From Longimicrobiales bacterium (lineage in GTDB: Bacteria > Gemmatimonadota > Gemmatimonadetes > Longimicrobiales > Gaopeijiaceae), in contig CBDCKN010000012.1 in the NCBI GenBank assembly GCA_965218295.1, positions 160,001 to 224,000 of the forward strand: 64,000 bases of DNA, given 5' to 3'. A model generated the notes under the pieces. That model worked only from the letters and a program-made list of their open reading frames with translations, searched no databases and was not told where the DNA came from. Position numbers and translations under genes: made by a program. Positions 35,001-59,334 of this stretch are shown piece after piece; the stretch's first letter is position 1; each line of letters starts with the position of its first letter.

Positions 35001-36017
35001 GCCCTCGGGCGTGAACCCGGCCGGCGCCTCCCACGACAGGTCGATCTGCGTCGCGCTGACCACCGTCGCCGTCAGGTTCGTCGGCGCGCCCAATACAACG
35101 GACTTGTTCCTGCCGCTCGAGATCGTGTGATCGGCAAAGGACGCCGCGTCGTTGCCGGCGTAATCCTGAATAGCCGCCGCGTCGTCGCCCGGCGTGGGGT
35201 CGCGATAGCTCACAGTGACGGATTGATCCTTGGTGATCACCCCGTCCAGGGCCAGCCGGACGACAGTCCCTTCCACGTGCACGCCGTCCACCGCAATGGC
35301 CACACCGTCGGCAGTGACGGTGAAAGCGCTTGCAGGGGGCACGCGGCCCGCTCCCCTGTCCAGGCTCTCGTCGAATTGGAGAAGCACGTCCGTGCCGTTG
35401 ACCGGTACACTGGTATCCCCAGCGTTCCCCGAGAACTGCGGCGCCATCATGTCCGTGGTGGTTGCGCTCGCGACGTTCGACGTCGCGCCAGCACCCACGG
35501 AGTTGATCGCCGAGACCCGGTAGTACCGCGTTCGGCCGTCCATCAGTCCGGTGTGCGCGTAGTCCGTGCCGGCGGATTCGGTGTCGTCTTTTAGAACCGC
35601 CCAGTGCATGCCGCCAGCGACCCACACCTCGATCCGGTAGCCGATGATCGCATCGCCGCCGTTATCCGCGGGCGCGGTCCATGCCAGATTGATCGTCGTC
35701 TCGCCTACCGCGGTTGCGGTTAAGTCAGTCGGCGCACCGGGTACGGCGGCCTGCTGCGCCTGAACCGGGACGGTGAACAGTATCCCGAGCAGCAACGAGA
35801 CCGTTGCCGCCGCGTGGCGAGCGAGCGTGGCTAAGGAACGAGCAAAGCTTCTTCGGGAGGAGTCGCGGTCCCGACCGCTGTCGGGCCGACGGTCCGTGTC
35901 GCGGGAGCGTTCTTGCGGGTGGGAAGTGCCGGCGTGCGACCGCCCGGCGGGCGAGGGCGGAAAGGATTGCGAGTCAGACCGGGAGGAGGCGCCCCTGCGA
36001 ATGCCAGGCGCGGCCAC
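26055..36017 (-). CDS. Giant surface adhesin / autotransporter-like protein (FN3, SwmB-like, Calx-beta domains, C-terminal beta-barrel)
   Basis: 3320-aa ORF; signal-like segment ending VPVQA; many FN3 repeats (PGAPTDLTAT...YRVSAIN); repeated AFTVTADG...VSYRDPT...QDYAGNDAASF domains; Calx-beta (VDYATSDGTAQAGVDY); amphipathic strands ending in Trp. Confidence 0.88.
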   Translation of the reverse strand: MAAPGIRRGASSRSDSQSFPPSPAGRSHAGTSHPQERSRDTDRRPDSGRDRDSSRRSFARSLATLARHAAATVSLLLGILFTVPVQAQQAAVPGAPTDLTATAVGETTINLAWTAPADNGGDAIIGYRIEVWVAGGMHWAVLKDDTESAGTDYAHTGLMDGRTRYYRVSAINSVGAGATSNVASATTTDMMAPQFSGNAGDTSVPVNGTDVLLQFDESLDRGAGRVPPASAFTVTADGVAIAVDGVHVEGTVVRLALDGVITKDQSVTVSYRDPTPGDDAAAIQDYAGNDAASFADHTISSGRNKSVVLGAPTNLTATVVSATQIDLSWEAPAGFTPEGYRIEVSADGGTTWTDRVADTESTATAYSHTGLTLRDTRHYRVSAIYQGYPAVPSNVASATAVDPTDSTPPAIASASTDYTRVLLSASEQLDESPDRAPPASAFTVTADGASITVERVLVEGILVGLLGLDPKITAGQTVKVSYRDPTDGDDQAAIQDYAGNDAASFTDRPVRNTSQLLGPPTNLTATAISATQIDLAWEAPSGFTPEGYQIEVSADGGTTWTDRVANTESTDTAYSHTGLTLGDTRHYRVSAIDQGFPKLASNVASATAVDPTDSTPPAIASASTDYTRVLLSASEQLDESPDRAPPASAFTVTADGASITVERVLVEGILVGLLGLDPKITAGQTVKVSYRDPTDGDDQAAIQDYAGNDAASFTDRPVRNTSQLLGPPTNLTATAISATQIDLAWEAPSGFTPEGYQIEVSADGGTTWTDRVANTESTDTAYSHTGLTLGDTRHYRVSAIDQGFPKLASNVASATAVDPTDSTPPAIASASTDYTRVLLSASEQLDESPDRAPPASAFTVTADGASITVERVLVEGILVGLLGLDPKITAGQTVKVSYRDPTDGDDQAAIQDYAGNDAASFTDRPVRNTSQLLGPPTNLTATAISATQIDLAWEAPSGFTPEGYQIEVSADGGTTWTDRVANTESTDTAYSHTGLTLGDTRHYRVSAIDQGFPKLPSNVASATTFDTADTTPPAVLDSPSLNTVTGSGVELILAFNEVLNDGAGRTPPASAFTVTADGSTVTVTEALVVAQSVRLVLDGVITYRQTVRVSYRDPTGGDDEAAIQDYAGNDAASFTDQAITNSSDLWQGPTNLRATKRSFNETDLSWQAPADFVPESYRVEGNNSAPDRWTTLVNEVDDPTDTVFSHYDPFPEPLHPYRYRVWAVSSTVESVVSNTAAAGPDRVPPVLVPEDRDTSVFSDGTVITLQFDERVVDGPPWSAFTVTVDGIPVQQGRVTTAQDQIRLTGFESPIGGGRVVRVSYRDPTPGDDPAAVQDVAGNDAASFTDVVVKNSSRVLPAPTNLRATGIDDTRIGLAWNAPDLSGLVWPDHVPGAGIHGYKIEASTDGGTTWTTLVLTDNRATSYVHTGLAHGAVRHYRVSALNAGNFAGLPSNVAGAISSDTQPPSLKSAATNQDGSEVNLTFTEAVRTGSGFGPPASAFTVTADGTPTTVGTVTSGSTSVLLRGLGLVIRQGQTVTVSYRDPTPGDDQAALQDDALNDVASFTDRPVTNQSTVAPTAPGAPANLKARARGDTRIDLSWDAPGDTGGRAIDGYKIEVSSDNGNTWTDRTANTGSADTAYSHTSLTSGSTRHYRVSAINAVGTGAVSNVANATAGSGPATPESVSATGAYARVGVTWDAVTGATGYTVQWKSGEESFSSARETAVTTNSATVSPLANGAAFMVRVSASNTAGDSEWSGAVTAATPVLAAPANVVATRGDGRLDAAWDAVEGAERYKVQWTSGGRAFADSREITAETNAATVPDLANGTTYTLRVRAANAGGESDWSATETGTPQVPAPETPEKLKVTAGDTNLAVTWDAVPVAAEYTVQWKSGTEEFDPERQLTVTVNTATVPGLVNGTTYTLRVRAANAGGESGWSETATGTPTPLGVPGNMEVTAWDGRVAVCFDEVVGATEYTVQWRTDTEAYSEDRQKTVFETSETMDCGEGRLSTTVHRLANETVHWFRVRASNSWWDEGIKRKDSTWSADVTATPTATAAAPANLVVTPADGRLDVTWDAVEGADSYTVEWRQSGTVREREETTHAAALTGLVNGTTYSLRVKAANEVGEGPWSVSARGRPDPLGHPPEVSITLGAGPPVDGAFAVKVTFSEAVRGFEVGDLTAGYVGGPGVVVRGFEEEQTGLVYSAMVPAPQPGKLVISVGPGKAAALADSQGNALGALVVEVGAAGNPVAVSGPVVTGVLMSTQSGNGRQDGFGTRSVAARGSSGSGSSVRVTVTFSEPVTVDVSGGTPTIGLMLGAGTRKTPYSGGTETETLLFVYTLTGEDGSVTGGSVTQNSLTLNGGTIRSWSGEDADLGHPSAALGDAGGGELPALTARFEAAPEAHDGAGTFTVRLVFSEPVAISYQTLRDESLSAAGGSVEAARRVEGRSDLWEITLKPASDEPVTLTLAAGRACDAAGAVCTADGRRLSNEAVLTVPGPAGGGPELTAQFENVPEAHDGQSAFSFQVAFSEDIGISNQTLRDESFTVTGGTITRARRVDGRHDLWEITLKPDSREAVTITLPGGRACGTAGAVCTRADSPRPLGNSPSSTVAGPPAESLTASFSDMPGEHTGDDFAFGLTFSEELDKDFSYRTLRDEAFAVTGGTVRGAKRREQGSNLGWTITVEPDSDGAVTLRLPETTDCGASGAVCTGDGRPLSTSLSATVAGLVGISVADARVEEGAGAVLAFAVTLERAAGGAVTVDYATSDGTAQAGVDYTATSGTLTFDAGDTEKTVEVPVLDDSHDEGEETLTLRLSNASGGRLADAEATGTIENTDPLPRALLARFGRATALHVMEQVEERLDASRAPGLRGRFAGRELRRGMEREMGRNFLSRLESAAVQGARDTTGVQPELGGAELLRMGLGGGDLLMGSGFVLNREMDQGASVSLWSRGMESRFSGRDGELSLDGGVRTTMFGADYAKGPLMAGLMLSHRRGLGGYQGADVGEVASSVTGLHPWVGYKLTERVTLWGVTGYGRGSLSLTPGEALSVPTSVASPIALNGGLSMSMLAGGVRGDLVDAGLGGFGLAFKADALWVGTGSEAVDGPAGRLAATEAVVTRVRTALEASRGYVVGHGIALRLSLEVGLRTDGGDAETGRGADVAASLIASDPLTGLSVDVRVRTLLVHEDEGFRERGVSVSLSYDPTPSTPLGFTARVAPSWGGQAMSGADALWGRDTMAGLGAGGPGSGNRLDGELGYALPVGSRLVGTPRFGVTTSEYGRDYRLGYKLTLLQAGAMNFEFGLDAQRRQSLLGQGDPEHSLHGRVTARW
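32952..34830 (-). repeat. Three near-identical 624-bp (208-aa) intragenic repeats (FN3 + SwmB-like pair); boundaries approximate
   Basis: Shadow ORFs recur at 33012/33636/34260 with identical translation; only isolated differences seen. Confidence 0.9.
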
Positions 36018-41762: not shown

Positions 41763-44700
41763 CTAAGGGTCGGCGGTGGGGTCAAAGCCGAGGTTTCTGG
41801 CCCAATCGAAAGCTTGCTCCAAAAGCTTCCGCTGCGAAGGCATCAGCTGGTCCCCTGCCTGAATGAGTCGGGGAAGTGCCTCAAGTTGATCGTAGACCGA
41901 CCACTCCACTTGGGGTCGCAGGACGATCCAGCGACACAATCGACGAACCAAGACCTCCTCTGGCACTGGTGCCGGAGGGACGGCAGCAGTTGCGCGCTCA
42001 ACCTCAACATCGACCTCCCCGGTCGAGGTCGCGAAACCTGCCCGATCCCTCACGACAACGCCTGAGGTCTCGACCGGGGAAGGAACGAGATCGGGGGACT
42101 CCGAGATATCAGGCACCTCGACTTCGACTGCGGGATCCATGAGCGTCTGCATGGCGTCCCGAGTAGGTTGCCGGGCGAGCCCCTTGAGGACCATATCGAT
42201 CTCTCTTTCGGGATTGAGAAGCCACCTTCGCCCCGAGACTCGGTGCACGGGCCACCCAGCACGCTCTATTATGTCCTGACGTTGGTAATCCTCGGGCCTG
42301 AGTTGCCCCAAATCGTCCATCTTCCAATCCCCGTCGCATTCCACCGCTAGCTGGCGCCCGCCGGAGTCCTCTACGACCAAGTCGATCAGATATCGACCAC
42401 AAGGAACCTGTGTCGTGACTCGCAGTTCGTGGTCCCGCAGTCTATTGCAAACGGCTTCCTCGAATCGGCTATCGAATTGATCGGGCCATTCTCCCTCTAC
42501 ATCCCAAGCTTCTGCTCGATCATGCACTCCTTTCGCGTGTTCCAGGAAGCCTCGGATGGCGCCGTTCGGGAACTGGTGCACTGGCAACGAAACGAAGCAG
42601 ATCGCCCTCTCCTTCGCTCTAGTGAATGCGACGTTCAGCCTCTCTTCATACCGTTGAATGGTCGTGATCGAGCCCGCATGGCTCGAGGGACCTTGTCGAA
42701 AGGAGTAGAGGATGATGTGGCGCTCGTCACCCTGAAACCCGTCTGCCGTCGAAGCGACAATCTGGTGCCGTTTGATCAAGTCTGGGTCTTGGTGGAACTC
42801 TCGAGCCAGAAGTAGCTGGATTAACTCCGCTTGATGCCGAAACGGAGAGATAGCACCTATCGTCTTGCCCCTACCCTCTCCTGATGTGATAAGGCGGCGG
42901 ATCTCGCTTACCACCGCTGCACATTCCTGAGGGTTAACTTTTCTGTCACGGTCCTCGTCGGCCTGCATGAGCTCTCGCACTTCGAGGGGGAACCTCGCCC
43001 GGTCAGGCACACGACGAGTGAGGATCTGGAGCTGATTGTCGTAGAATCGGTCATTTGACCACCGGATAATGGCTGGGTCGCAGCGAAAATGCTCGTCTAG
43101 AAACCGGCTCGCATTACTGCAGGCTTCGGCAAGTTCCAGCAGACTCCCCTTGCCGTCCAGAAAATGAGCCTTGGGGTGTCGGTCGATCTGGTACTCCGCC
43201 TGAAGCAACCGTACAGTGTTTCCTGAGAGGAACATGGAGGTCACTGGCTGTAGCTGCTTCTTGTCACCTACGACGATCATCTTCCTTGCCCTGAACGCCA
43301 AAGGAAGGGCCGTCGCTTGGCTGCACTGGGATGCTTCGTCAACAATCAGATAGTCGAACAGGCCCGCCTTCGGCGGGAACAGGCGCGCCGCATCATCGAT
43401 AGTGCAGATCCAACAGGGGAACACTCTCAACACAGCGTCGTAGTCGATCGAGTCTCTCAAGGCTAACAACGAGTCGTTGAGACGCTTTCGCGCTAACAGC
43501 TTCCTGAGTGTCAGTAGGGGAACGCGGATCGCTGGAAACTGCAGCGCCTTATACGCGGCTAGTTCCCGTTTCCTCTTGATGATCTCCGAAATCATCCTGC
43601 GACGCTTCTCTTGACCCTTACTGAGTGCCTCTGAGATCTCCTCCAGATTGTCCGGATGCACCGACAGACTGCCTCTAATCAGACCGGAAAGGCGATGGGC
43701 TTCCATCGCCTTTTCAGCTTCACGGAGCCAATCAGGAATCTCTCTGCGGTCCTGAATGAGCGATCGGATTTCTTCGAGTGTATTGGAAAGGTGAGACAGT
43801 TCGACCGTTTCCAAGTCAAGCATCCGTCGGTAGTACCCGTAGTTGCGGGTCAACCTCTTAAGCTGTCCGAGGGCTTCCGACGCTTCTTCCGACAGGACGC
43901 CTTCTTGGATTCCGTCCGCCACGGCTGCAACCCGCCCCCGCCAGGGTTCTTGCAGACTTAGCGCACCGATTAGGCCACTTGTGACACTCTGGCGGGCAAT
44001 CCACCGTCGTGCCTCTTTCAGAGCGTCTGCCAGTAAGTCCCGTGAATCTGCGGTAGCAAGGAGGTGAGGATTTCCGTCGTCCCCAAACGCACTATTGAAA
44101 TCCTCCAGCGGTATCGTTTCCAACTGAATGAGCATCTGAACAGCGGTATCCGCCCGCGACGCTACGCGAAGGACAAGCTCCTTGCCCCTCGGCCGAGTTG
44201 ACCCAAGGGACTCCAGCGGGACACGGGGGAGAAGGTCGTTGAATTGAATCTCAGCTTCGGTGTAGGATTCCAACCACAGCAGGGCGTTGTTGATGTCACG
44301 GAGATCCGACAGTCGACTCCCCCTTCGCACACCGAAGTCCCACTCTCTCAGGCGACGTCGGGACCGGTATACTTCTGGGCTAAGGAACCACCATAGGAGA
44401 TTGGAACCGCGTTCGCGTAGTATCTCAGCATCCTTGCGGATCCGACCTGCGCCAGCTTCCAGCGCGTTCCAGTCGTACTCTGAGCCCCTTAGGGTCGAAG
44501 CCTGGAAAAATCTGGTCAGGCTCCGCATACTGGCCAGCCATTTATCGAGTCGCTCTCTCCGTATCGAGGAGAGGGCCTCAAGCCAATTGCTTAGTGTATC
44601 GACCTCCTCGGGACGCTGACCGAGATCTCGGAGGTTTCGTTCGATAGCGGGACCCTCTGAAGCGAGCCATTCCTCCAGCCGCGAGATAACAGCAAGAGGC

Positions 44701-46409
44701 TGATCTCGGTCTAAAGCGGTCAGGCGCTCCGCGATACTACGACCAGAATCACTGACAGGAGTGTCGAGGGACTCCGCACTCTCAATCAGATTTAAGAGAG
44801 TCTTGGCAATCCCCGTCTCTCTTACACGGGTCGTCTGAGGGCCATCTGGTCGAAAGACGGCTTCGAACGAGGGAAGCCCCGAGAGAAGGGGTTGGAACAG
44901 GTTCGCCCACTCCCGCAGAAGTCTCGCAGTTTCCTGCGGTTGCTCTTCCACAGGGTCGTCTAGGGGAGACATCTGGTCGTACTCGCGGAGGTCCTCATAG
45001 CGAGAGAAGCTCGGGAATTCCTCATGCTCGAGACGTCGGAGTTCCATGAAACGCCGGCTAAGCCGCCGGAGCTCTCGGTCGTTCTGTAGCTGTGCCGCCT
45101 GCCCCCGTTCGATGGACTCCGCAGTGAGGTGGTCCGGAGGACGGTCCTGTATGCCCTCCAGCTGTGTCCGCAACTTCTGTAACGATTCTTGATCGCCAGA
45201 CAGCATCGATAGAGCTAGTCCGTCGAATCCGCTGAGCATCTTGCTCAGCACCTCCATCGCCTTTCGCTGGTGACTCGTCACGAGTACGGAGTGGCCTTCG
45301 GTAACCAGGTGGCAAACCAGATTGGCGATCGTTTGGGACTTGCCGGTTCCGGGTGGTCCTTGGACGGTCAGGACATCGACACGGGTGGCCGTCTGGGCAA
45401 CTTCACGTTGGGCCCGATTCGATGGAAACGGGAACCACAGCGGGTCTCCGCCGTCTGCAGTATCCTCAAACGGGAGGTGTATCGCGTCGAACTCGGGCGC
45501 TCCCTCTCGGGGAACATCTCCGACGATTTGGGCGAGGACGCTGTCGCCCCCGGGATTGGACTGTGCCCCGATCGCTCTGAGATCGGACAGAAGAAACGCG
45601 TAGGAGCGGGGCCCGTTCGCGAGAACCGGCCTCATCGTAATGAGAGCGGGGTTTGGGTCCTTGAGAGAACCCAGCTGTTGCAGGAATTCCTTCAGCGAGC
45701 AGTCTAATGCGGCGATTTCTTCGCACTGGGCCAGAGGTTCGAAAATCCCTGTGAGCACCTGTATCAGTTCAGGGATCCTGGCCGGTCCGAAACCATCATC
45801 GTAGAGGAGAGGTAGGAGTTTCTCGTTTGCAAGTGAGATGTCATCGGGGTCATCCGCCAACTTGCCCAGGAGAATCGTGTTCAGGTCAGGGGTACTGTTC
45901 CTTCGGCGTAGACGGACTTCACGGCTCCTCGGGTCGTAGTCAATATCCATCTCCCAGACCAACAAAGGCCCCGTGATGAGTCTCCGGCCCATCCGAGCCC
46001 CAATGAGTGGGAACCCCAGCAGCGTTTCCCGGTTGTGAGGATCGTTTCGCTGCTTTCTTGCTATTCGGCGCAGTGTTGCCGCAGCTTGGGGGTCAGGGCC
46101 CTCTAGCTGTTCGCCCTGCCCCGTAGAGTCCTGTTCGTCGCCAGCGGCTTCCTCCTCTTCTAGCCCCGCCAACTCAAGCTCTGCGTCCTCCGCCTCCGAA
46201 CTAGAGTTGACCTCGAGTTTCAGGCAGAGCTGCGCCGCTTCAAAGATCTCCTCGTCGCCCTGGGCGAAGCTCGCCAAGTCCGCTGTGAGGCCATACCGCA
46301 GGGCCTTCCGCAGGTCATGAAGGTGTGTAGCTCCGGACTGAGAGCGGAGAAGCGCGTCATAGAACTTCGCGAGGCGCGGGGTCCAGGCTCGCCAATCGAA
46401 CTCAGCCAT
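41763..46409 (-). CDS. SF1 (DNA2/NAM7/UPF1-type) helicase with C-terminal Vsr/MTES_1575-like PD-(D/E)xK nuclease; putative Zorya-like effector
   Basis: VQGPPGTGKSQT, IVDEASQ, VGDKKQL, EHFRC, ISPFRHQ, TADGFQGDE, RLNVAFTRAK; FDSRFE...YLIDLVV...LAVECDG...RQDIIERAGWPVHRV. Confidence 0.9.
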   Translation of the reverse strand: MAEFDWRAWTPRLAKFYDALLRSQSGATHLHDLRKALRYGLTADLASFAQGDEEIFEAAQLCLKLEVNSSSEAEDAELELAGLEEEEAAGDEQDSTGQGEQLEGPDPQAAATLRRIARKQRNDPHNRETLLGFPLIGARMGRRLITGPLLVWEMDIDYDPRSREVRLRRRNSTPDLNTILLGKLADDPDDISLANEKLLPLLYDDGFGPARIPELIQVLTGIFEPLAQCEEIAALDCSLKEFLQQLGSLKDPNPALITMRPVLANGPRSYAFLLSDLRAIGAQSNPGGDSVLAQIVGDVPREGAPEFDAIHLPFEDTADGGDPLWFPFPSNRAQREVAQTATRVDVLTVQGPPGTGKSQTIANLVCHLVTEGHSVLVTSHQRKAMEVLSKMLSGFDGLALSMLSGDQESLQKLRTQLEGIQDRPPDHLTAESIERGQAAQLQNDRELRRLSRRFMELRRLEHEEFPSFSRYEDLREYDQMSPLDDPVEEQPQETARLLREWANLFQPLLSGLPSFEAVFRPDGPQTTRVRETGIAKTLLNLIESAESLDTPVSDSGRSIAERLTALDRDQPLAVISRLEEWLASEGPAIERNLRDLGQRPEEVDTLSNWLEALSSIRRERLDKWLASMRSLTRFFQASTLRGSEYDWNALEAGAGRIRKDAEILRERGSNLLWWFLSPEVYRSRRRLREWDFGVRRGSRLSDLRDINNALLWLESYTEAEIQFNDLLPRVPLESLGSTRPRGKELVLRVASRADTAVQMLIQLETIPLEDFNSAFGDDGNPHLLATADSRDLLADALKEARRWIARQSVTSGLIGALSLQEPWRGRVAAVADGIQEGVLSEEASEALGQLKRLTRNYGYYRRMLDLETVELSHLSNTLEEIRSLIQDRREIPDWLREAEKAMEAHRLSGLIRGSLSVHPDNLEEISEALSKGQEKRRRMISEIIKRKRELAAYKALQFPAIRVPLLTLRKLLARKRLNDSLLALRDSIDYDAVLRVFPCWICTIDDAARLFPPKAGLFDYLIVDEASQCSQATALPLAFRARKMIVVGDKKQLQPVTSMFLSGNTVRLLQAEYQIDRHPKAHFLDGKGSLLELAEACSNASRFLDEHFRCDPAIIRWSNDRFYDNQLQILTRRVPDRARFPLEVRELMQADEDRDRKVNPQECAAVVSEIRRLITSGEGRGKTIGAISPFRHQAELIQLLLAREFHQDPDLIKRHQIVASTADGFQGDERHIILYSFRQGPSSHAGSITTIQRYEERLNVAFTRAKERAICFVSLPVHQFPNGAIRGFLEHAKGVHDRAEAWDVEGEWPDQFDSRFEEAVCNRLRDHELRVTTQVPCGRYLIDLVVEDSGGRQLAVECDGDWKMDDLGQLRPEDYQRQDIIERAGWPVHRVSGRRWLLNPEREIDMVLKGLARQPTRDAMQTLMDPAVEVEVPDISESPDLVPSPVETSGVVVRDRAGFATSTGEVDVEVERATAAVPPAPVPEEVLVRRLCRWIVLRPQVEWSVYDQLEALPRLIQAGDQLMPSQRKLLEQAFDWARNLGFDPTADP

Positions 46410-46848
46410 CTGGATTCTCCGGAAGAATCCCCTCCTGTGAGTACCGAAGGACGATCTCTATGCGACGGTCTCTCGCTAGTGCGAGTGCGGTCGTGTCCGA
46501 AGGGTCAGAAAGTGGATGGAACTCTCCCCTTCCGACAGAACTGAGCCTAGCGTTTTGGAGGAGCGATGACGACGAGAAGAGACGGACCACTTCAGTCGCC
46601 CTTCGAGCGGAGAGTTGCCAGTTGTCCTCGATCCCAGCCTGTTGGCAGACTATTCCGGTGACACCCTGCCGGTCGGCGTGCCCCTCTACCTGCACTGACT
46701 CAAAATAGGATTCCTGGTCGCCAAGGACTGCCCCTAGCACTATGAGGAGTTCACGCCCCGTCGGCCTCAGGTCGTCACGGCACTCCTCAAAGACCAACTC
46801 TCCCGTAACGGAACCTGTCAACGCCAGTGAGACACTCTTGGAAATCAA

Positions 46849-47856
46849 TTAGAGAGCAATCTCCTGTGTAGTGAGGGATGGGGTGGGAGGATTGATCCAG
46901 ACGGCCTCCGGGAGTGGTTTAGGCTTCGGCTCACCGGAGACGAAGCGCTCGGGATGAGCGGCCCATGCCTCACGGAGCACGGCCTTCCTGCAGGCGATGA
47001 TCCGATCGGCGTGACCGAAGTGGACCTGTTCGGGGGTCAGCATCGAGATGCCGCCATGGCGGTGCTCGGCATTATACCAACGGAAGAACGAGCGACAGAA
47101 GGTCTTGGCTTGCCCCTGATCCCCGAACCGGCCGGGAAACGAGGGATGGTACTTCAAGGTCTTGAACTGAGCCTCGGAGAACGGATTGTCATCCGAGACC
47201 TGGGGTCGGCCCAACGAGCGGGTCACGCCGAGATCGGCGAGTAGTTGAGCCGTGCATTGGCTCGTCATCGGAGCCCCTCGATCGGAATGCAGGGTCAGGA
47301 GGTGGGGCTGGACGCCATGCTTCAAGCAACTCTGCTGGATCAGCCGGCTGGCCAGGGCAGAGTTCTCCCGATCCGCCACCATCCATCCCACGACGTAGCG
47401 GCTGAAGATGTCCAGGATCACGTAGAGGTAGAAGTAACTCCACTTCTTCGGCCCCAGCAGCCGGGTGATATCCCAGGACCAGACCTGGTTCGGGCCCCTC
47501 GCCATCAACTCGGGCTTCTGGTATTTGGGATGACTCCGCTGCGCTCGACGCTCCTGAACCGGCACCTGGGAAGCCAGAACGCGATACATCGTACGCTCGC
47601 TGCACAGGTAGACGTCCTCGTCGAGCAGCGTCGCCACCACCTCGGCTGGGGACCGGTCCACGAACCGCTCCGAACACAGGGTGTCGAAAATCTTGTCCCG
47701 CTCCCTCTCGCTTAAGGCCCGGGCGGGGGTCGGGCGGGGCTGCTGATGCCCGGTCGATGCACTCCGACGACGGTAGAACGTGGCTCGCGGCACCCTGAGC
47801 GCATCGCACGCGGGCTTCACCCCTACGTGCTTGGCTAGCTCCTGGGTCGCCTTCAT
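46849..47856 (-). CDS. IS3 family transposase OrfB (integrase core)
   Basis: PNQVWSWDIT, ILDIFSRYVVGW, HSDRGAPM, DNPFSEAQFKTLKY, WYNAEHRH. Confidence 0.93.
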   Translation of the reverse strand: MKATQELAKHVGVKPACDALRVPRATFYRRRSASTGHQQPRPTPARALSERERDKIFDTLCSERFVDRSPAEVVATLLDEDVYLCSERTMYRVLASQVPVQERRAQRSHPKYQKPELMARGPNQVWSWDITRLLGPKKWSYFYLYVILDIFSRYVVGWMVADRENSALASRLIQQSCLKHGVQPHLLTLHSDRGAPMTSQCTAQLLADLGVTRSLGRPQVSDDNPFSEAQFKTLKYHPSFPGRFGDQGQAKTFCRSFFRWYNAEHRHGGISMLTPEQVHFGHADRIIACRKAVLREAWAAHPERFVSGEPKPKPLPEAVWINPPTPSLTTQEIAL

Positions 47857-48302
47857 GAGTTCGTCCCGTCCTCGAGGCTCAATCCCAGCAGCCCTGCAAC
47901 TTTTCCCTGGACGTCGATGATCAAGTGCGCCTTCTGGAGCTCCTTTTCGAGGCGAGTGTTCTCGCGCTCCAGCTTGCGCACCTTCTCCTCCAGCGGATTG
48001 CGCTCGCGCTTACGGCCTCGTTTCTTCGACAGCGCTTTCAGGGACCCGCTATGCGCCGCCTTGCGCCATGTCGTCAGGTGCGACGAGTACAAGCCCTCCC
48101 GCCGTAGGAGTCGGCCAACCTCTCCGGGCTCCGTGCACCGGTCCGCTTCTTCGACGATCCGCAGCTTGTACGACGGAGCGAACCGCCGGCGCAGCGGCCT
48201 ATCTACCACCTCCGAGTCCGCAGGAGCTGCCGCGCTTCGCTTACCGTCCCAGGTTGGTGGGGCTATTCCATTCTCTTTCATTCTCTCTCGGTGTCTCAGC
48301 AT
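47853..48302 (-). CDS. IS3 family transposase OrfA (HTH + leucine zipper)
   Basis: RRRFAPSYKLRIV, LLRREGLYSSHLTTWR, coiled coil; ATGA overlap with orfB. Confidence 0.88.
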   Translation of the reverse strand: MLRHRERMKENGIAPPTWDGKRSAAAPADSEVVDRPLRRRFAPSYKLRIVEEADRCTEPGEVGRLLRREGLYSSHLTTWRKAAHSGSLKALSKKRGRKRERNPLEEKVRKLERENTRLEKELQKAHLIIDVQGKVAGLLGLSLEDGTNS

Positions 48303-48651
48303 CCTCGGTTTCTCTGCCTTCGCCCTACTCTAATTCCTTAGCTGCTCCGTGTCTCACGTAAGTTGGCAGAGAGGGTAACTCGGATCCGCTGACTAAGGCC
48401 GTCTTCACTCACAACCTCGACGTCGATTCCCTCCCGCCGACCAGCCTCTGCCCGGATCTGGACTGCGACTAGGTGCTTCCGGCGTTCAATTTCTTCTTGG
48501 ACGAAAATCTGTTCGTAATTGAGAAATTGGGCCAGGATGAACAACACAAAAACGAGAAGCATGGACAACGCCACATCGCCGAGTGTTGCCCAGTGCTTGG
48601 CCTCCTCATTTCGATGGTCGCCAGGGCTCGGAGACAGCCGCGTGTCCATGA

Positions 48652-50367
48652 CTACTCTAACCCCTGTAGATCTTCACGGATCTCTTCAGGAGAGATGCTG
48701 AGATTACGTGGCTCATTCTCGGGTAGGTTCCGTGAGTCGGCGCCTTCGGCTCCCGGTTGGCCGTCGTCTCCTCTCTCCCAGGACTCAGCCGGACGGGGAG
48801 TCCTAGCAGTGATTGCCGACGTAGAAAGCCCCCCCCTAGAGGTGTCCGCTCCAGCCAGATCCCTCAACTCACGCCCCAACGCGTTCAGGCTGGTAGCTAC
48901 ACGATCACTGTTGCCGCGCTGAGATCCGATCAGGCGTTCGCCCATGAGATCCAGGCTCTCTCGGAGAGTCGCTCGGATTCCTTCGACCATTTCTTGGCTC
49001 TGGTTCAGGGCCCTCCGGGACTGGTCAGCAAGCAACCGCATCGTCTCCCGGTACGTCGCTTGAAACTCGTCGAGAGACATCGTGACCCGTTGCTGACTCT
49101 TCGATTGTTCCTCTGTCAGGCGGGCGACCGAAGTCAGTGTTTCGCGCAGACCATCTCGAAGTGCCTCAGCAGTCTCTCTTCCCATCTTCTCTATGGCTTG
49201 ATCGGCCTGCTCCCAGGTGCCACTCGCGGCCTCAAACGAGCTATTGAGACGCTTCAGCACGTCTTGGAGCTCTGCTAACAGAGCGCGCTCACCGGAGACC
49301 GCCTCTCCGAGAGCCTTTGCTGCTGCTTCTTGCCGCTCAAGAACGGGGCGAACTGCCCGCGTGTGCTCGGTTAGCGTATGTGCGAGAGACTGCTGCTCAG
49401 AGCGAATCGTTTCCTCTAGTGCATGCTGGACACGGGGAAGGAGTTGGCCCGACGCCCGAACCCCTTCTTGGAGCTCCTCGGTTGTCGCCTTCACCGTTTC
49501 CACGTACTGGGCCAAGCTGAGGCTGTCTTCGCTCCTCTCTCCGATGATCTCCAACATGGCGTCTCGGAGAGAGCCCACTTGGTTGAGCAGCTCCGTGCTT
49601 TGGTCGCGGAACTGATTCCCAAGTGCCTCAAATCCGACGCGAACATCCGTTAGAGTCTGATCGAGGCCCTCTTTCAGGATTTCCCGGGTTGCTTCAAGCT
49701 CCTTCACTGCATCGCCCATGCGGGACTCCTCTGTTGTCTTGAATAAAGGAGCCCACTGGGTTGATGATAGTTCCTCCAATTTACGGATTGCCCGGCTCTG
49801 CTGATGTCGAAGTATGGCCAAGACGGACCCCACCAATACGGATCCTCCGACGCCGGCTAAAGTGGTCGAGAAAGCCACTTCCATCCTACCTAGAGTGGCG
49901 AGAATAGCATCCACCATTTCCTGCGTTCCCATTCCGCCCCTTAGCAGGGTCGTCGACAACTCCGACACCGCTAGACTTAGCCCGACCAGGGTGCCGGCGA
50001 GTCCAAGAAGGACAAGGATCGAAGTCCCCCAGCGCGCGATAGGTGCCGCATCTCGGAAGGTCTCTGCAGAGATAGCGGCGAGCATCTCCGTATCCACTGG
50101 CTCCCCACTAAGCTGAAGTCTCTTGAGGAGAACCAGACGGTGTTGAACGAGGCCATTGGGTTTGGCCTTTTCGGCAAGGGTCAGCAGCGCCTCGGAGTGG
50201 TCCTGCTGCCCCTTTTGTTCTAGGTCTTCGAGATCCTTCAGAGTGGTCCGAACATCGTTCACTAACGTATGGACGACCTGCGCAATACCTACCGCGGCGA
50301 TGGCTGCGATCACGAGGTTGAGGAAGACGCCGACGGGTTGATCCGGTGGAAGAAAGAACTCAATCAT
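48652..50367 (-). CDS. zorA: ZorA-like protein (MotA/TolQ/ExbB membrane domain + long helical cytoplasmic tail)
   Basis: N-terminal TM; MotA-type TMs LLGLAGTLVGL and MEVAFSTTLAG; about 330-aa helical/coiled-coil tail; 2 nt upstream of the ZorB-like gene. Confidence 0.82.
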   Translation of the reverse strand: MIEFFLPPDQPVGVFLNLVIAAIAAVGIAQVVHTLVNDVRTTLKDLEDLEQKGQQDHSEALLTLAEKAKPNGLVQHRLVLLKRLQLSGEPVDTEMLAAISAETFRDAAPIARWGTSILVLLGLAGTLVGLSLAVSELSTTLLRGGMGTQEMVDAILATLGRMEVAFSTTLAGVGGSVLVGSVLAILRHQQSRAIRKLEELSSTQWAPLFKTTEESRMGDAVKELEATREILKEGLDQTLTDVRVGFEALGNQFRDQSTELLNQVGSLRDAMLEIIGERSEDSLSLAQYVETVKATTEELQEGVRASGQLLPRVQHALEETIRSEQQSLAHTLTEHTRAVRPVLERQEAAAKALGEAVSGERALLAELQDVLKRLNSSFEAASGTWEQADQAIEKMGRETAEALRDGLRETLTSVARLTEEQSKSQQRVTMSLDEFQATYRETMRLLADQSRRALNQSQEMVEGIRATLRESLDLMGERLIGSQRGNSDRVATSLNALGRELRDLAGADTSRGGLSTSAITARTPRPAESWERGDDGQPGAEGADSRNLPENEPRNLSISPEEIREDLQGLE

Positions 50368-50591: not shown

Positions 50592-50933
50592 CTACACAGC
50601 CCCCAACCTCTGTTTGATCTTGCCCGTGACCAGTCTGACCTGGGCCGCCGACACCCGCCCCAGCTTCGAGGCGTCAGACGCGTCGATCGTCGCTATCTTG
50701 GCGCTGCGGATGACGGAGGGGACGGGCAGGCCCGCCAGCTTCAGGTTGGTGACTGGCACGTCGTCGGGCCAGCCTCGGTTCTCGGCGCTGGTAATCATGA
50801 CGACCCACAAGAGTCCGTACAGATCCTGGAGTTGAGCCGTCGATACGACCACGGCTGGTCGCGACTGCCGCGTCGCGCGGTCCGTGTACGGGAACGGCAC
50901 CTTGATCACGTCACCGCGCTCAAAGGTCCGCAT
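50592..50933 (-). CDS. PemK/MazF family toxin
   Basis: FERGDVIKVPFPYTD...RPAVVVS...MITS. Confidence 0.9.
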   Translation of the reverse strand: MRTFERGDVIKVPFPYTDRATRQSRPAVVVSTAQLQDLYGLLWVVMITSAENRGWPDDVPVTNLKLAGLPVPSVIRSAKIATIDASDASKLGRVSAAQVRLVTGKIKQRLGAV

Positions 50934-51138
50934 AGGCCGTGGTATCCGCTTCTGATCGCCATTCCTCGAAGGTGTGGAACGGGTCGTCTGTTGTGGTGCC
51001 TCGCCGCGCCTTGGTGAGAAAGACTCGCCCATCGACGATCTCGTACAAAAGCTCGTCGCCCGGCTGCAGTCCGAGCGCCGCGCGGATCGGCCGCGGGATG
51101 GTGGTCTGGGCCTTGGAAGTCAGCTTGCTGACGATCAT
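50920..51138 (-). CDS. AbrB/MazE-type antitoxin
   Basis: SKLTSKAQTTIPRPIRAALGLQPGDEL; overlaps toxin start; GAGGTG RBS. Confidence 0.88.
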   Translation of the reverse strand: MIVSKLTSKAQTTIPRPIRAALGLQPGDELLYEIVDGRVFLTKARRGTTTDDPFHTFEEWRSEADTTAYADL

Positions 51139-51714
51139 GACACTCACCTCGGGTTGGTTGGCATGCGTGCTATTGTAAGGAATGTCCTTACTTCTGTCAC
51201 CCTGACCTGTGTGCGCCGGGAGGCTGTTGCCCAGCGTACGCTCACCCTCATATAGTTGGCTGTCTTGCATTTACGGCCCTGCCGCAGTAGCGGACAGGCC
51301 GCCCCGACGGTCTCGGAGCTAGACGGGAGTCGTCTTTGGAATGTCTCGACCGGCATCTCAGAGGGTAGCCATTGTGCGCGCCCATCGCACCCTCCGCAGA
51401 GATCACTCGCGTCGAACGACCCCTTGCAGGAAGCCAAGTCATAGCGATGAGGATGCCAGCGCTGCCGATGCTGGTGGGCGTCGTCGCGGCGGCGGCTGAT
51501 GGAAGACTGCACGGCATGCCTCGGTGGGGAGCCCGCCGGGGGCATCCTTGATCCACCAACCGGCGATTCGCACTGACCTCATCCGCCCGTTCTCATCGCC
51601 GTCAAGCGTGAAGATATGAAGGCCCTTCGGGTTGTTCTCGCGGATCGTGTCTGCGACGATTGAGACGGGATCGTTGCTATGTCCACAGCCTGACATCCTC
51701 GGAGGACCCACACA

Positions 51715-53931
51715 TTGTCGAGATTCAATCCTCATCACCTAGTCGAGCCGATCTACAACGCAGCTGCCCGATGGCGGGAGAGATGCTTGGAGACCGACGA
51801 ATCTGCACTCTCGGATAGCAAGAATCTTTGGACACCGGATCTGCTAGACGAACTCGACCGCTGGTTCGGACAGCACCGCGATGAGGGTGAAGGAAATTTT
51901 TTAGAAAAGCTCGAATCTCAGCTAACACGGGGATCGCCAGCCTGTCGGCAGCTGATGGCCGAGCACCTATGGATCCTGATGCTGTTCCAGACGAATGTCG
52001 GTGCGGCCAAGAAGCGCGACAACGTCCGTCAGGTCTGGTCGTGGTCCGGAGAGGAACTGGCAGAAGACCATTCACTCCTGAGCGACGGCGTTCTAGGGGG
52101 CATCGGATCCGCGGGAGCGGCCTTCAATATGCAGCGCTGGCTCGAGCTCATCATGCTAATTGCCGCTGTTCGCGATTTTAAGAGGCGTGGGGCTGATGAA
52201 CGCGCCGGGATTGTTGGTGATCCGTGGTCGTTCACCAAGTGGGTCAATGCGATACCTGAAGCCCGCAACCGCCAGTTCCGCCACATTCTACCTCATCTTC
52301 TGTATCCGGACACCTTCGAAAGGATCAGTTCGGGAAGAGACAAGTGCCTGATCGTGGCGGCCTACGGTGACAAGTCGGAGAAAGAGGTCAAGAAGTTCGA
52401 CCTGATCGATATGGACCGGGCACTTCTCGATCTCCGCAGACGGTGTGAGCGGAAACAAGGCACTGACATCGACTTCTACGAAGACGAGTTCGTTCGCGTA
52501 TGGCGCAATCAGACCAACAACTGGCTGCTTAGCTGGAACCCCACAAAGTGGACCTGGACATCTCTAGCCGAAGATCGCGCATCGACGCTTGTAGGAGAAA
52601 GGGTTTCAAACTGTTGGCGATGTGGTTCAACGAAACCACGCGAGGGTGATCGCGTTTACCTCATGCGAACGGGTGTAGCGCCGAAGGGTATCGTCGCGGT
52701 TGGTACGGTGACACGTGCACCATACGAGGCGCCTCACTGGGATAACGAGCGTGCGGATGCGGGCGATACCGGACGCTTCATCGATGTTGATTTCGACGCG
52801 ATTCGGGATGCCGACCAAGAGAGCATTGTTCTAGTGGACGAGCTCGAGCGCCAAGAACCCCAACAGCAATGGAATCCGCAGTCCTCAGGCATCGAGATCA
52901 AGAGGGAGTCGGTACGGACGCTTGCGCGCTTATGGAAAGCACTTCCGTCAATCAGTACCTCGGTCAAGCCGGCGCAGGTCACCCCGCTCAACATCATCCT
53001 CTACGGACCACCAGGGACCGGAAAGACTTTCCGCCTGATTACCGAATACCTGCCCCGATACAAGGATGCCGGCGAGGACCGGTTCGTGTTTGTCACCTTC
53101 CATCAGAGCTACGCATACGAGGACTTCGTCGAGGGCATTCGCCCGAAGACCCGGAACGGCACTGTAATCTACGAGGTGCGACCGGGTGCGCTGCGACGAA
53201 TCTGTGACCGGGCAAGGAAAGCCCCTGACAAGCGGTTCGCCCTGTTTATCGATGAGATCAACCGTGGCAACGTGCCGAAGATCTTCGGGGAGCTGATTTC
53301 ACTCGTCGAGATTGACAAGCGAATCCGGACCGACGCCTTAGGGAAAAGGATGCCAGGCTGCAAGGGACTCGAAGTGACGCTTCCCTATTCCGGAGAGCGC
53401 TTCGGCGTGCCGACGAACGTTGACGTTATTGGCACAATGAACACCGCCGACCGATCGATAGCGCTGCTCGATTCCGCCCTGCGCCGCCGCTTCCGGTTCC
53501 AGGAACTGACACCGCAGCCCCGGCTCTTGAAGACCATCACCGATGGCGCGGGGAGTCCGATAGATCTGCAGCAGCTGCTCGAGACCATCAACGATCGACT
53601 CACCCATCTGCTGCACCGCGATCAGACCATCGGCCACAGCTACTTTTACGAGGTGAAGACGTTCGACGATCTACAGCGTGTTTTCGCTCGCGAGATCCTT
53701 CCGCTGCTCCAAGAGGCCTTCTACGACGACTGGAGGCAGATCCGCCTTGTCCTGGCGGATCAAGCAGTCAGTGAGGAATTCCAACTCGTGCGCGCACGCG
53801 TGCAATCTGCGAAGCAGCTGTTTCCAAACGCTGACATGGCCGAGACCTTGGACGGCGAGGCCTATGAGATTGTTCGCGAGGACGAGATCACGCCTGACGC
53901 CATCCGCAAGATCTACGAGACAGCGGAGTGA
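51715..53931 (+). CDS. mcrB: McrB-family AAA+ GTPase with internal EVE/PUA-like domain
   Basis: ILYGPPGTGKT, VTFHQSYAYEDFVEG, IDEINRGN, MNTADRS, ALRRRF, IGHSYF; central WLLSWNP...GDRVYL...GIVAVGTV. Confidence 0.9.
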   Translation: MSRFNPHHLVEPIYNAAARWRERCLETDESALSDSKNLWTPDLLDELDRWFGQHRDEGEGNFLEKLESQLTRGSPACRQLMAEHLWILMLFQTNVGAAKKRDNVRQVWSWSGEELAEDHSLLSDGVLGGIGSAGAAFNMQRWLELIMLIAAVRDFKRRGADERAGIVGDPWSFTKWVNAIPEARNRQFRHILPHLLYPDTFERISSGRDKCLIVAAYGDKSEKEVKKFDLIDMDRALLDLRRRCERKQGTDIDFYEDEFVRVWRNQTNNWLLSWNPTKWTWTSLAEDRASTLVGERVSNCWRCGSTKPREGDRVYLMRTGVAPKGIVAVGTVTRAPYEAPHWDNERADAGDTGRFIDVDFDAIRDADQESIVLVDELERQEPQQQWNPQSSGIEIKRESVRTLARLWKALPSISTSVKPAQVTPLNIILYGPPGTGKTFRLITEYLPRYKDAGEDRFVFVTFHQSYAYEDFVEGIRPKTRNGTVIYEVRPGALRRICDRARKAPDKRFALFIDEINRGNVPKIFGELISLVEIDKRIRTDALGKRMPGCKGLEVTLPYSGERFGVPTNVDVIGTMNTADRSIALLDSALRRRFRFQELTPQPRLLKTITDGAGSPIDLQQLLETINDRLTHLLHRDQTIGHSYFYEVKTFDDLQRVFAREILPLLQEAFYDDWRQIRLVLADQAVSEEFQLVRARVQSAKQLFPNADMAETLDGEAYEIVREDEITPDAIRKIYETAE

Positions 53932-55178
53932 AATACCTGAGCCTACGTGAGAGGGATGTCATCCGCGTGGGCTCTGATGGCCAACTCTCGCAGCGCGAAG
54001 CTGATAGCATTGCGAAACTTGCCACTTTCCTGCCGAAGGGATCACTGGGCTGGGAGCACCGCGCGCTCCGTTTTGGCCCGTTCTGCGGTGTGCTTAGGAC
54101 GCGCGAAGTGTCGATCGAGTTGTTGCCCAAAATCGACCGTGGCCTCGAAACCACGACCGACAAGCGGGGACTGCTCGTTGCAATGTTGGCTGCCGCAGGC
54201 AAACTCCGCCTCGCGAAGGTCGGCCAGGCCGGACTAGCGCGGCAGACCATCCACCTTCTGGATATCTTCATTCAGGATTTCTGCGCCCGCGTGAAGGCGG
54301 CACTACGCGTAGGTGTCATCGCTCTCTACACCGAGAGGAGCGAGAACCTGAAAGCTATCCGGGGCAAGCTTCAGCTGACGAAGCATCTGCGTCGAAACGC
54401 TTTCGATCGGTCGCAGCTGCTTTGCCGGTTCGACGAGCACACCATCGACAATCCATTCAACCGGGCCCTGAAAGGCGTATTGCGTCTCTTGCTCGGTCAC
54501 TCGCTGGACCCGCAGACGAAATCCAGGGTAACGTCGTTGCTCCATAGGCTGGATGAGGTCGCGGATAGACCCGTGCAGATAGCCGACCTGAATGCACTCA
54601 GTTTCGACCGAACCAACAATCACTGGCGCGACGTCTTCAGCCAGGCAAGGTTTCTCTTGGCCGGACTATTCCCTGATGTGCGGATCGGTGACGCATGGGG
54701 TTCGGCCCTGCTCTTCAACATGGAGCGCCTCTTCGAAGAGGTCCTCGGGCGACGGATCATGCGGGAATCTCGCAAGTTAGTTGGCCGTCAGCTGCATGTA
54801 GATCTTCAGAAGCCGCAGCGGCACCTCTCGACCACAGACTTTCGGCTTCGGCCCGACATTACGATCCAGGATGATGACCAAGTCGTGGCGATCCTTGACG
54901 CTAAGTGGAAGCAGCTGATCCCGAGCGAGCCGAACGCCGGCGTGTCGAGCGCGGATGCCTATCAGATGAACGCTTATGCCAGCCGGTATCGCTGTAAGCG
55001 GATCACCCTAATCTATCCGGCCTCTGCACGGTGCGCTCCAGGGCGTGTCCGGGAGTTTCGCTTCCAAACCTCGGGCCAACCGATCCTCGACGTCGTAGCA
55101 GTAGACATTCACGACCTTGCGTTCGGAAGCACTATGCCGGCCGGACTGGAGGGAGTGATACAGTCGGGACGGTCATAG
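53928..55178 (+). CDS. mcrC: McrC-family restriction endonuclease subunit
   Basis: IELLPKI, DNPFNRALK, FNMERLFE, LRPDI...ILDAKWK, DAYQMNAYA; GTGA overlap with mcrB. Confidence 0.9.
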   Translation: MKYLSLRERDVIRVGSDGQLSQREADSIAKLATFLPKGSLGWEHRALRFGPFCGVLRTREVSIELLPKIDRGLETTTDKRGLLVAMLAAAGKLRLAKVGQAGLARQTIHLLDIFIQDFCARVKAALRVGVIALYTERSENLKAIRGKLQLTKHLRRNAFDRSQLLCRFDEHTIDNPFNRALKGVLRLLLGHSLDPQTKSRVTSLLHRLDEVADRPVQIADLNALSFDRTNNHWRDVFSQARFLLAGLFPDVRIGDAWGSALLFNMERLFEEVLGRRIMRESRKLVGRQLHVDLQKPQRHLSTTDFRLRPDITIQDDDQVVAILDAKWKQLIPSEPNAGVSSADAYQMNAYASRYRCKRITLIYPASARCAPGRVREFRFQTSGQPILDVVAVDIHDLAFGSTMPAGLEGVIQSGRS

Positions 55179-57841: not shown

Positions 57842-58588
57842 TCAGCCGACATTGTCCACATTCGAGTGCATTTCACGGAGATTGTCGGATCGGATGAGGA
57901 CGTTTCCGTATTCGTAGCCAGTCGTATATTCGGCCAGAAAGCGGGACGAGAAATCCTCCCGCAGTCCGTGCAGAAGGGTTCGACCGAGTGCACCCGTGAT
58001 GGCATTGGTCCCTCGGCCAGCTGCCCGGTAGAAGCACGTCGCAGTTTTGATCATCGCACCGCTCGCACTCGCTTCCTTAACACCCTCGGTGAAGAAGTAA
58101 CGGTATTTCGTATGAGAGCCGCTCCAATGACTTGGGCCTGCGAAGAAGCCAAAGACCCGCCGTGCATGCGACATGCGGATCAGCTCCGAAATCACTCCGA
58201 CGAACCCGAGGTCTCGCCAGAGCGTTGCGACCTTTCCCTTCATCTCCGCTTCGTAGGGATGAATGGGATCAAGTGCGTGGACGATCCCATAGCCTGCAGA
58301 AATGATATACAAGTCAATCCGACCGGTTTTGAGGTGGCGTGTCAAATTCTCTCGAAAATCGAAATCCGATCTGTAAAGGCCACCATCGTACTGACGGAGA
58401 GCATTGCATGGCCGGACATCTTCCTCCACGCACTTGCTCATCTTGTTCCTGGCCGCTTGCAGGTCCTGCCAAGTTTCGGGGATGCGTCTCTCAGTCAGAG
58501 TCGGCGGCAAGGCTCGAAAGTCGGGGTACTTTGTCTTCCTTTTGCAGCAGGGGATGAAACACAACGTGTCGGCCATGGTTTCCATCAT
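57842..58588 (-). CDS. YaaA/DUF6884-like protein
   Basis: FIPCCKRK, ALRQYDGGLY, YIISAGYGIV...IHPYEAEM; ATGA overlap with upstream gene. Confidence 0.65.
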   Translation of the reverse strand: MMETMADTLCFIPCCKRKTKYPDFRALPPTLTERRIPETWQDLQAARNKMSKCVEEDVRPCNALRQYDGGLYRSDFDFRENLTRHLKTGRIDLYIISAGYGIVHALDPIHPYEAEMKGKVATLWRDLGFVGVISELIRMSHARRVFGFFAGPSHWSGSHTKYRYFFTEGVKEASASGAMIKTATCFYRAAGRGTNAITGALGRTLLHGLREDFSSRFLAEYTTGYEYGNVLIRSDNLREMHSNVDNVG

Positions 58589-59229
58589 CCCAGCGGAGTT
58601 GACGCGACGTAGTCGGCGAACTGCTCCAGATCGCCCGCAGACATCGGAGCATCCGACACGTAATGGCTGTTCCACATTCCGGCCCGACGTATCACATCCG
58701 AATACGCGTAATACCCCAGCCATTCGCGGGAGGGCTGGCAGAGGGGGCAGGACGAGAGGGTCGCAATCAATGTCTTCTCAAACCGGTTGCGCTCCTCCCG
58801 CAGGGGAATGGAGACGCATCGGAACCGGAATCGCGTGCTCAGCAGACGAGACACGCTTTGCTCGACGGGCTTACAACGATGACAAGTTTTCTCGTCCTGT
58901 TGTTCCCAGTGGCCTTTTCCGGGTGCTGGTGCAAGGCAGGGATGACTCGGGTCCTCGGACCGCATCGACGCACCGCCGAGGAACTTGCGAAACACGCTAC
59001 CGTTCTTGTGGCCCTTGTAATGCTGCCGCAGCCGGCGAACTAAGGTCCCATCGGAGCGGGGATGGTTGCCGACCCGCACGATTCGACCAGCCGGAGCGTG
59101 TTGAGCCGACTCACCGTCCTCGTAGAAGAAGTACAAGCCATCCGTGATCGTAACCTCAGCGGGCTCCTCGAATGCGGGCAACGAGCCTATCAGCGCGTGT
59201 ATCGTCCGACAGCCTGCTTCTGGAGACAT
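58585..59229 (-). CDS. GIY-YIG-like nuclease
   Basis: GLYFFY...IVRVG...LVRRLRQH...SVFRK...EKTLI...WN pattern. Confidence 0.65.
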   Translation of the reverse strand: MSPEAGCRTIHALIGSLPAFEEPAEVTITDGLYFFYEDGESAQHAPAGRIVRVGNHPRSDGTLVRRLRQHYKGHKNGSVFRKFLGGASMRSEDPSHPCLAPAPGKGHWEQQDEKTCHRCKPVEQSVSRLLSTRFRFRCVSIPLREERNRFEKTLIATLSSCPLCQPSREWLGYYAYSDVIRRAGMWNSHYVSDAPMSAGDLEQFADYVASTPLG

Positions 59230-59334
59230 ATTCCACCCACCACTTCGCCGCAGTCGCTTCAGGGCGTCTTTACGAATCTCCACGACCTCTAGGGATCTGG
59301 CAAGTCGCACTCTCTTGTCCGTACCCGCGTCCTC

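Follow-up and report, generated by a model that had tools for sequence, protein, structure and literature searches.

A candidate Zorya variant pairing a ZorAB-like motor with a co-inherited SF1 helicase-nuclease

A three-gene unit, zorA-zorB-helicase, lies on the minus strand of a 64,000-nucleotide stretch of DNA from a Longimicrobiales bacterium (contig CBDCKN010000012.1 of assembly GCA_965218295.1, positions 160,001 to 224,000), referred to here as the window. It encodes a ZorA-like motor subunit, a ZorB-like subunit whose gene is split by an insertion sequence (IS), and a UPF1/DNA2-type superfamily 1 (SF1) helicase-nuclease (Table 1). The gene order is kept in other genomes, and the helicase is co-inherited with the motor genes. 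We conclude that the unit is probably an unnamed Zorya variant in which the motor recruits a captured enzyme of the Prometheus/Hhe type.

Three types of the Zorya defense system are on record (PMC11946911; PMC11890865; PMC8565338), type I also being described in a 2026 review (PMC13434031). Zorya I and II each depend on the transmembrane (TM) aspartate of the motor, on its peptidoglycan-binding domain and on its tail (PMC11946911; PMC11890865). Type III is defined by ZorF and ZorG (PMC11890865), not by ZorC, ZorF and ZorG as stated in an initial annotation of the window, which was made from the sequence alone.

Table 1. Coordinates in the window of the unit and its features
Feature	Position	Strand	Basis
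Whole zorA-zorB-helicase unit	41763..50367	minus	Open reading frame list
ZorA-like subunit, 571 amino acids: three TM segments, membrane-proximal helical domain, ~290-residue helical tail	48652..50367	minus	PADLOC, AlphaFold model, fold matches
Thr126 of TM2, candidate ion-filter residue; partner Thr168/169 of TM3	49990..49992	minus	Alignments
Conserved tail-tip motif, residues 497-503; candidate effector contact	48859..48879	minus	Alignment
zorB-like gene, 5' part: TM helix, Asp25 at 48575-48577	48376..48649	minus	PADLOC ZorB1 E 7e-6; intact homologues L003, L004, L006
1567-bp IS with IS3-family-type transposase; orfA 47853-48302, orfB 46849-47856	46809..48375	minus	BLAST, rve, HTH_Tnp_1, NCBIfam IS3 above cut-off
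zorB-like gene, 3' part: OmpA-like peptidoglycan-binding domain	46402..46808	minus	Pfam OmpA, PADLOC
UPF1/DNA2-type SF1 helicase-nuclease, 1548 amino acids, candidate effector	41763..46409	minus	AAA_11, AAA_12, MTES_1575
N-terminal alpha/beta domain, possibly DUF4011-like	45510..46409	minus	Model pLDDT 83.6
Walker A motif, residues 351-358	45336..45359	minus	Sequence motifs
Vsr-like nuclease domain MTES_1575, residues 1316-1409	42183..42464	minus	79 bits vs cut-off 38

Results

The initial annotation described three co-directional, tightly spaced genes, and the open reading frames bear this out: zorA and zorB are 2 nt apart, and zorB, which runs with its interruption from 48649 to 46402, overlaps the helicase gene by 8 nt. 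Compared with a homologous locus, L003, from Ca. Palauibacter, each of the three genes shows purifying selection, with a ratio of nonsynonymous to synonymous substitution (dN/dS) of 0.12-0.15 at a dS of ~1.4, near saturation.

The ZorA-like protein has three hydrophobic segments (residues 9-37, 110-128 and 167-187), and its AlphaFold model (mean pLDDT 77.5) places three helices in the membrane and a helical domain in the cytoplasm, with a tail helix that reaches residue 501. The MotA-type TM segments and helical tail of the initial annotation are recovered in this model, with the tail shorter than the ~330 residues first proposed: it comprises residues 213-275 and 285-501, ahead of ~55 low-confidence residues, and at 0.15 nm per residue would be ~43 nm long. 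The PADLOC models ZorA1, ZorA2 and ZorA3 match the protein weakly (best E 1e-9). In a fold comparison of residues 1-222, ExbB and TolQ gave Z scores of 12.8-15.8, ZorA of type I 13.1-13.8 and MotA/PomA at most 9.8, and the type I structure 8QYY superimposed on the model with a root-mean-square deviation of 3.0 over 191 residues. The sole sequence match of residues 1-216 in the PDB is the ZorA of 8VVN, a weak one (E 0.046). On descent, fold therefore favors ExbB/TolQ by ~2 Z units, whereas sequence weakly favors ZorA. Profile matches to apolipoproteins in the PDB were dismissed as coiled-coil noise.

Thr126 is present in every sequence of two alignments (30 and 50 sequences). T168/T169 are invariant as well in the alignment of 30, and these threonines align, at the weak E value above, with TM threonines of 8VVN, Thr126 falling on that of TM2. 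At the tail tip, E500 is invariant and L497 and R502 are nearly so among 30 sequences with identities down to 21%. A sister subgroup of ZorA-like proteins (P0164-P0195; locus L004, 10001-11635) has at its end a basic-aromatic motif that is short and amphipathic. This motif resembles the membrane-targeting helix of MinD, and the tail tip may therefore return to the membrane.

With the IS removed, zorB is a frame of 225 codons plus a stop. As the initial annotation had it, the protein combines a TM aspartate with an OmpA-like domain: Asp25 lies in its one hydrophobic segment (residues 19-46), and the 3' part matches Pfam OmpA at 43 bits (cut-off 27) and PADLOC ZorB1/ZorB3 at E ~1e-10. The intact homologues match ZorB3 and ZorB1 at E ~1e-17, and among the PDB chains listed, the ZorB of 8VVN is the one whose best stretch covers both the TM segment and the periplasmic domain. 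Two cysteines of the periplasmic domain are conserved in the window protein and in L003, L004 and L006; in E. coli, ZorB carries disulfides in this domain (PMC11946911).

These features bear on whether the two genes form a defense motor at all. The membrane fold and the TM aspartate are shared with the 5:2 motors ExbBD, TolQR and MotAB, from which the unit differs in its long cytoplasmic tail, its OmpA-type partner and its lack of Ton, Tol and flagellar genes. ExbB and TolQ are the best fold matches of the ZorA-like protein, and a conjugative region adjoins the unit, as might be expected of a non-defense envelope machine (an ExbBD/TolQR-like energizer or DNA-uptake helper) with an associated repair helicase. 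Such a machine is highly improbable here, given a partner domain of the MotB/OmpA and not the ExbD/TolR type, the long tail, and the rare and patchy occurrence of the unit amid defense genes in all four informative loci.

The intact operon occurs in nature. A 3-bp target duplication (46806-46808 and 48376-48378) flanks the IS, which has 66 BLAST matches in its own genome, 39 of them full-length copies. The 35 copies at >=98.7% identity, in a genome of 3.6 Mb, point to a recent IS burst. Exact 3-bp duplications were seen at 22 of the 39 copies, and the ends of the IS, as set by the full copies, differ from TG...CA, the usual ends of IS3 elements. Among eight sequencing runs, contigs of X2, X3 and X5 (three studies) join 46804 to 48375 and represent an IS-free allele; one contig of 7647 bases spans the whole unit without the IS, with 25 differences. 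Runs X7, X8 and X11 did not cover the site. In two runs of a single study, pieces enter the IS, at both of its ends in X1 and as one piece in X4; since these pieces end inside the IS, the insertion is present in the reads of that study, which may be the source, and an assembly error was ruled out. The window copy of the unit is probably inactive, because the IS parts the membrane anchor of ZorB from its peptidoglycan-binding domain.

The helicase has a complete set of SF1 motifs, with DEASQ at residue 1024 and an insertion of 600 residues, and its nuclease residues E1317, D1343, E1357 and D1359 are invariant in 43 sequences. The initial annotation was correct as to the length of this protein, its SF1 class, its long insertion and its nuclease, but not in placing the nuclease at the C terminus, as a linker and a short conserved stretch come after it. 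DNA2 is the closest solved structure, and SEN1 and UPF1 are also among the nearest. The best-matching models are PDC-S37, ProA, Hhe and MkoC, those of NCBIfam scoring far below cut-off. For the N-terminal domain, the case for DUF4011 consists of an Atlas lead of 0.88 and an HH probability of 21% (E 0.001), with no Pfam match, and Foldseek found no match to this domain in the PDB. In runs X3 and X5, one base is lost and one gained at window 44446-44456, ten bases apart, and the helicase frame is kept.

By these matches the helicase is related to the stand-alone defenses ProA (Prometheus), Hhe and PDC-S37, a point that the initial annotation missed. It shares with them the AAA_11/AAA_12 helicase, the long insertion and the MTES_1575 nuclease (E 1e-75, 1e-47 and 1e-69, respectively). 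It differs from Prometheus and Hhe in scoring 255 and 162 bits against NCBIfam cut-offs of 1500 and 2000 and in having no Pfam match to DUF4011 or DUF3320, the two domains of the single-protein Prometheus system (PMC13700489), and it differs from all three single-gene defenses in being tied to a motor operon. Type III-B CoCoNuT CnuH is similar in its UPF1-like helicase, its helical insertion after Walker A and its fusion to a Vsr-like nuclease, but CnuH belongs to an operon with coiled-coil McrBC (PMC11090510), and no McrBC stands beside the unit in L003 or in a further locus, L006.

The pairing of motor and helicase is conserved. An alignment search with ZorA yielded five loci. The order zorA-zorB-helicase is kept in L003 (66%/72% identity, ZorA 66%) and L006 (28%/44%, ZorA 28%), a different helicase lies upstream in L004, and L005 and L007 are too short for neighbors to appear. 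A further ZorA/helicase pair has near-consecutive RefSeq accessions. To extend these loci, exactly equal length of the longest contig was taken as a proxy for linkage between a ZorA cluster and a helicase of the clade, leaving out ZorA clusters on contigs <7.3 kb and, except for P0161, 10 proteins from one search. By this measure 14 of 23 ZorA clusters (contigs >=7.3 kb) matched a clade helicase, as compared to 0.06 expected after shifting the lengths. Trees of ZorA and helicase for 16 pairs have 13 of 13 splits in common, while 10,000 shuffles reached at most 4, and the congruence spans ZorA identities down to 22%. As the pairs were made without sequence information, full congruence also validates the length proxy. 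The linked helicases all belong to a single clade (26 members, support 0.987), of which 16 members have a motor link, in a tree of 93 of the 94 proteins (the truncated P0032 was left out). The helicase is thus a consistent and co-inherited partner of this motor clade, which answers the question of conserved gene order raised by the initial annotation.

Outside this clade the two parts occur separately. None of 21 loci with distant helicases has a motor gene beside the helicase, and the helicase is missing from all 11 loci that carry distant MotA-like genes. The sister clade of 39, which includes P0060, labeled archaeal, produced a single length match, which involves a protein of different source and which we take as chance (lengths only were compared). 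One locus, L004 (2091-12303), may hold a second and independent pairing of motor and helicase: after HmaB-HmaC comes a helicase-nuclease from another subfamily, which shares 8 nt with the start of a zorA-zorB-like pair.

One could suppose from this that the motor genes are an orphan pair and the helicase-nuclease a stand-alone enzyme, two independent defense modules that co-travel in one cassette without joint action: the distant helicases are solitary in all 21 loci, the sister clade is without a credible ZorA length match, and L004 joins related motor genes to a different helicase subfamily in a different gene order. We regard this as improbable. The trees agree fully to 22% ZorA identity, the genes overlap, both proteins have conserved patches specific to the clade, ZorAB alone gives no defense (PMC8565338), and no other Zorya effector was found near the unit or, for ZorC, ZorD, ZorE and ZorF with one model each, in the genome (91% complete).

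The unit is rare and patchy, being present in one of 36 genomes in the genus of genome G442. In 400 other genomes of the phylum, searched in part under a stricter match filter, there was no close match to the unit, and the 313 genomes of its own family held distant helicases only. For genome G443, no second locus was found among 200 relatives and, with a stricter filter, 300 order-level genomes. Candidates on viral contigs were confirmed in 0 of 147 and 0 of 71 cases; plasmids gave no ZorA match and partial, distant helicase matches only, and phages gave partial matches only.

The G+C content of the region is 0.57-0.62, against ~0.65 for the genome. Conjugation-type genes (coupling protein, VirB11-like ATPase, ArdC) occupy one flank, and a toxin-antitoxin (TA) pair, McrBC and an integrase the other. 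The TA pair, of the PrlF/MazE-PemK kind, and McrBC together occupy window 50592-55178. McrBC lies 1.3 kb past zorA in divergent orientation, and its McrB has a weak EVE-domain match. The McrBC and TA neighbors of the initial annotation are present in the window but are not conserved. Neither adjoins the unit in L003 or L006, so both were ruled out as members. Defense-gene neighbors vary between loci. Upstream of the unit, relatives have a WYL-domain gene (L006 2-634) or a capH-like helix-turn-helix gene (L003 5297-5794), typical regulators of defense operons. The downstream border of the cassette is at window 41635, 128 bases past the helicase stop, where contigs of runs X2, X3 and X8 diverge; it falls inside a multi-copy conjugative-type element. 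The island also has a further candidate defense pair (window 57842-59415), a PDC-M57B-like gene with a YaaA/DUF6884-like gene, and a 3320-amino-acid surface protein (window 26055-36017) with many repeated units that look fibronectin-like by eye. A scan for promoters and terminators gave signals at chance level only.

Discussion

By anatomy the unit resembles Zorya, with a MotA/ExbB-like ZorA that has a long tail, an adjacent ZorB with a TM aspartate and an OmpA-like domain, and the TM2/TM3 threonines; the ZorB feature is split by the IS in the window and intact in L003, L004, L006 and runs X2, X3 and X5. Yet the unit does not belong to type I, II or III, as their defining effectors were not found. 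PADLOC found no ZorC or ZorD (type I) among the reading frames around the unit, nor did a genome-wide search with one model each (genome 91% complete; the ZorC search had no positive control). The ZorE HNH protein of type II had no match around the unit or, with one model, in the genome. ZorF and ZorG (type III) had no match among the flanking frames, to which the ZorG search was confined, and ZorF none genome-wide (one model, no positive control). The initial annotation had likewise recognized none of these effectors.

Type I (8QYD, 8VVN; PMC11946911, PMC11890865) is the closest in design, sharing the three-TM ZorA, the long tail, the ZorB domains and a helicase-nuclease fusion downstream of the motor. 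In contrast to type I, the unit lacks ZorC, its helicase is SF1 (UPF1/DNA2-type) and not SNF2, its nuclease is Vsr-like and not Mrr-like, and its helical tail of ~290 residues compares with a tail region of 507. Types II and III (ZorE; ZorF and ZorG; PMC8565338) share the motor core, ZorA3 and ZorB3 being among the nearest PADLOC models, and type II is likewise a three-gene system whose one effector is a nuclease. The effector here is a predicted ATP-driven protein of 1548 amino acids, with neither the HNH nickase ZorE nor a ZorF match. No library model for the unit scored above cut-off in PADLOC or NCBIfam, and no catalogued subtype was found. A Zorya subtype with an SF1 helicase is unnamed in the literature searched, which mostly excluded subscription papers; supplementary candidate tables may list the operon. 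A TIR preprint returned by the search was a false match. With a co-inherited helicase and no catalogued subtype, the undescribed Zorya variant proposed by the initial annotation is supported, and chance neighbors or an artefact are ruled out by the same order in other loci, the IS-free contigs, the pairing statistics and the congruent trees.

By analogy with Zorya I, the predicted ion-driven motor would sense phage entry and anchor to peptidoglycan at the breach; ion flow would act on the long tail, which would recruit and switch on the helicase-nuclease, and the enzyme would then unwind and cut the incoming phage DNA. The 5:2 motor, the anchoring and the recruitment at the tail would follow Zorya I and II. 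To judge from anatomy, a single protein may combine the DNA-binding role of ZorC with the helicase-nuclease role of ZorD, and it would descend from a stand-alone enzyme of the Prometheus/Hhe type. The tail-tip motif with E500 and helicase patches conserved in the linked clade only (~residues 312-321, 519-531 and 1490-1545) are candidate mutual contacts.

The wiring could also run in reverse. The helicase would then be the sensor of phage nucleic acid, which might be RNA or R-loops, and the cell would be killed or arrested, as in abortive infection, by the motor or by nuclease attack on host nucleic acid. RNA and single-stranded DNA are substrates of UPF1-like helicases, and RNA is the predicted target of those type III-B CoCoNuT helicases that carry a fused Vsr-like domain (PMC11090510); Prometheus is described as kin of R-loop-acting enzymes (PMC13700489), and host chromosome damage is recorded for Zorya II (PMC11890865). 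The nuclease itself is altered in a manner that would suit this wiring: after the ECDG motif (residues 1357-1363, window 42321-42342) the motor-linked clade has Trp-Lys where the sister clade has Phe-His. In Zorya I, however, the motor is upstream and recruits the nuclease (PMC11946911), and the unit retains a peptidoglycan-binding domain and a long tail, which fit envelope sensing. We consider reverse wiring unlikely, though less so than independent modules.

Several observations weigh against a Zorya variant with a recruited effector. The PADLOC scores of ZorA are low (at most 35 bits) and come partly from coiled coil, and with ExbB/TolQ exceeding ZorA in Z score, fold alone is no proof of Zorya descent. 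Nine of the 23 ZorA clusters are unmatched; five of these, with >=90% identity to the window, may be concealed within a single helicase cluster of 12 members, and four are unexplained. Three of the 16 pairs were seen as DNA, the other 13 by length match only, and congruent trees are evidence of co-inheritance, not of contact; shared host descent could contribute to the congruence. Since Lys replaces the sister clade's His, nuclease activity in the linked clade should not be assumed, and the helicase may not need the motor, because its relatives defend alone. The reading as a whole is drawn from sequence and models, with the same order read as DNA in three loci.

The effectors of the three known Zorya types are unrelated to one another. 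Because its effector has free-living relatives, this three-gene version makes the signaling from the Zorya tail to an effector testable. A Zorya variant with a captured effector would mean that defense systems are rebuilt by coupling a sensor taken from one system with an effector taken from another, and that annotation tools have missed a subtype. In a bolder and rather doubtful extension, the Zorya motor would serve as a plug-in sensor and would have captured stand-alone Prometheus/Hhe-type helicases twice independently, in this clade and in the L004 lineage (another helicase subfamily and gene order); through the tail-tip motif it would license a free cytoplasmic enzyme only at the site of phage injection.

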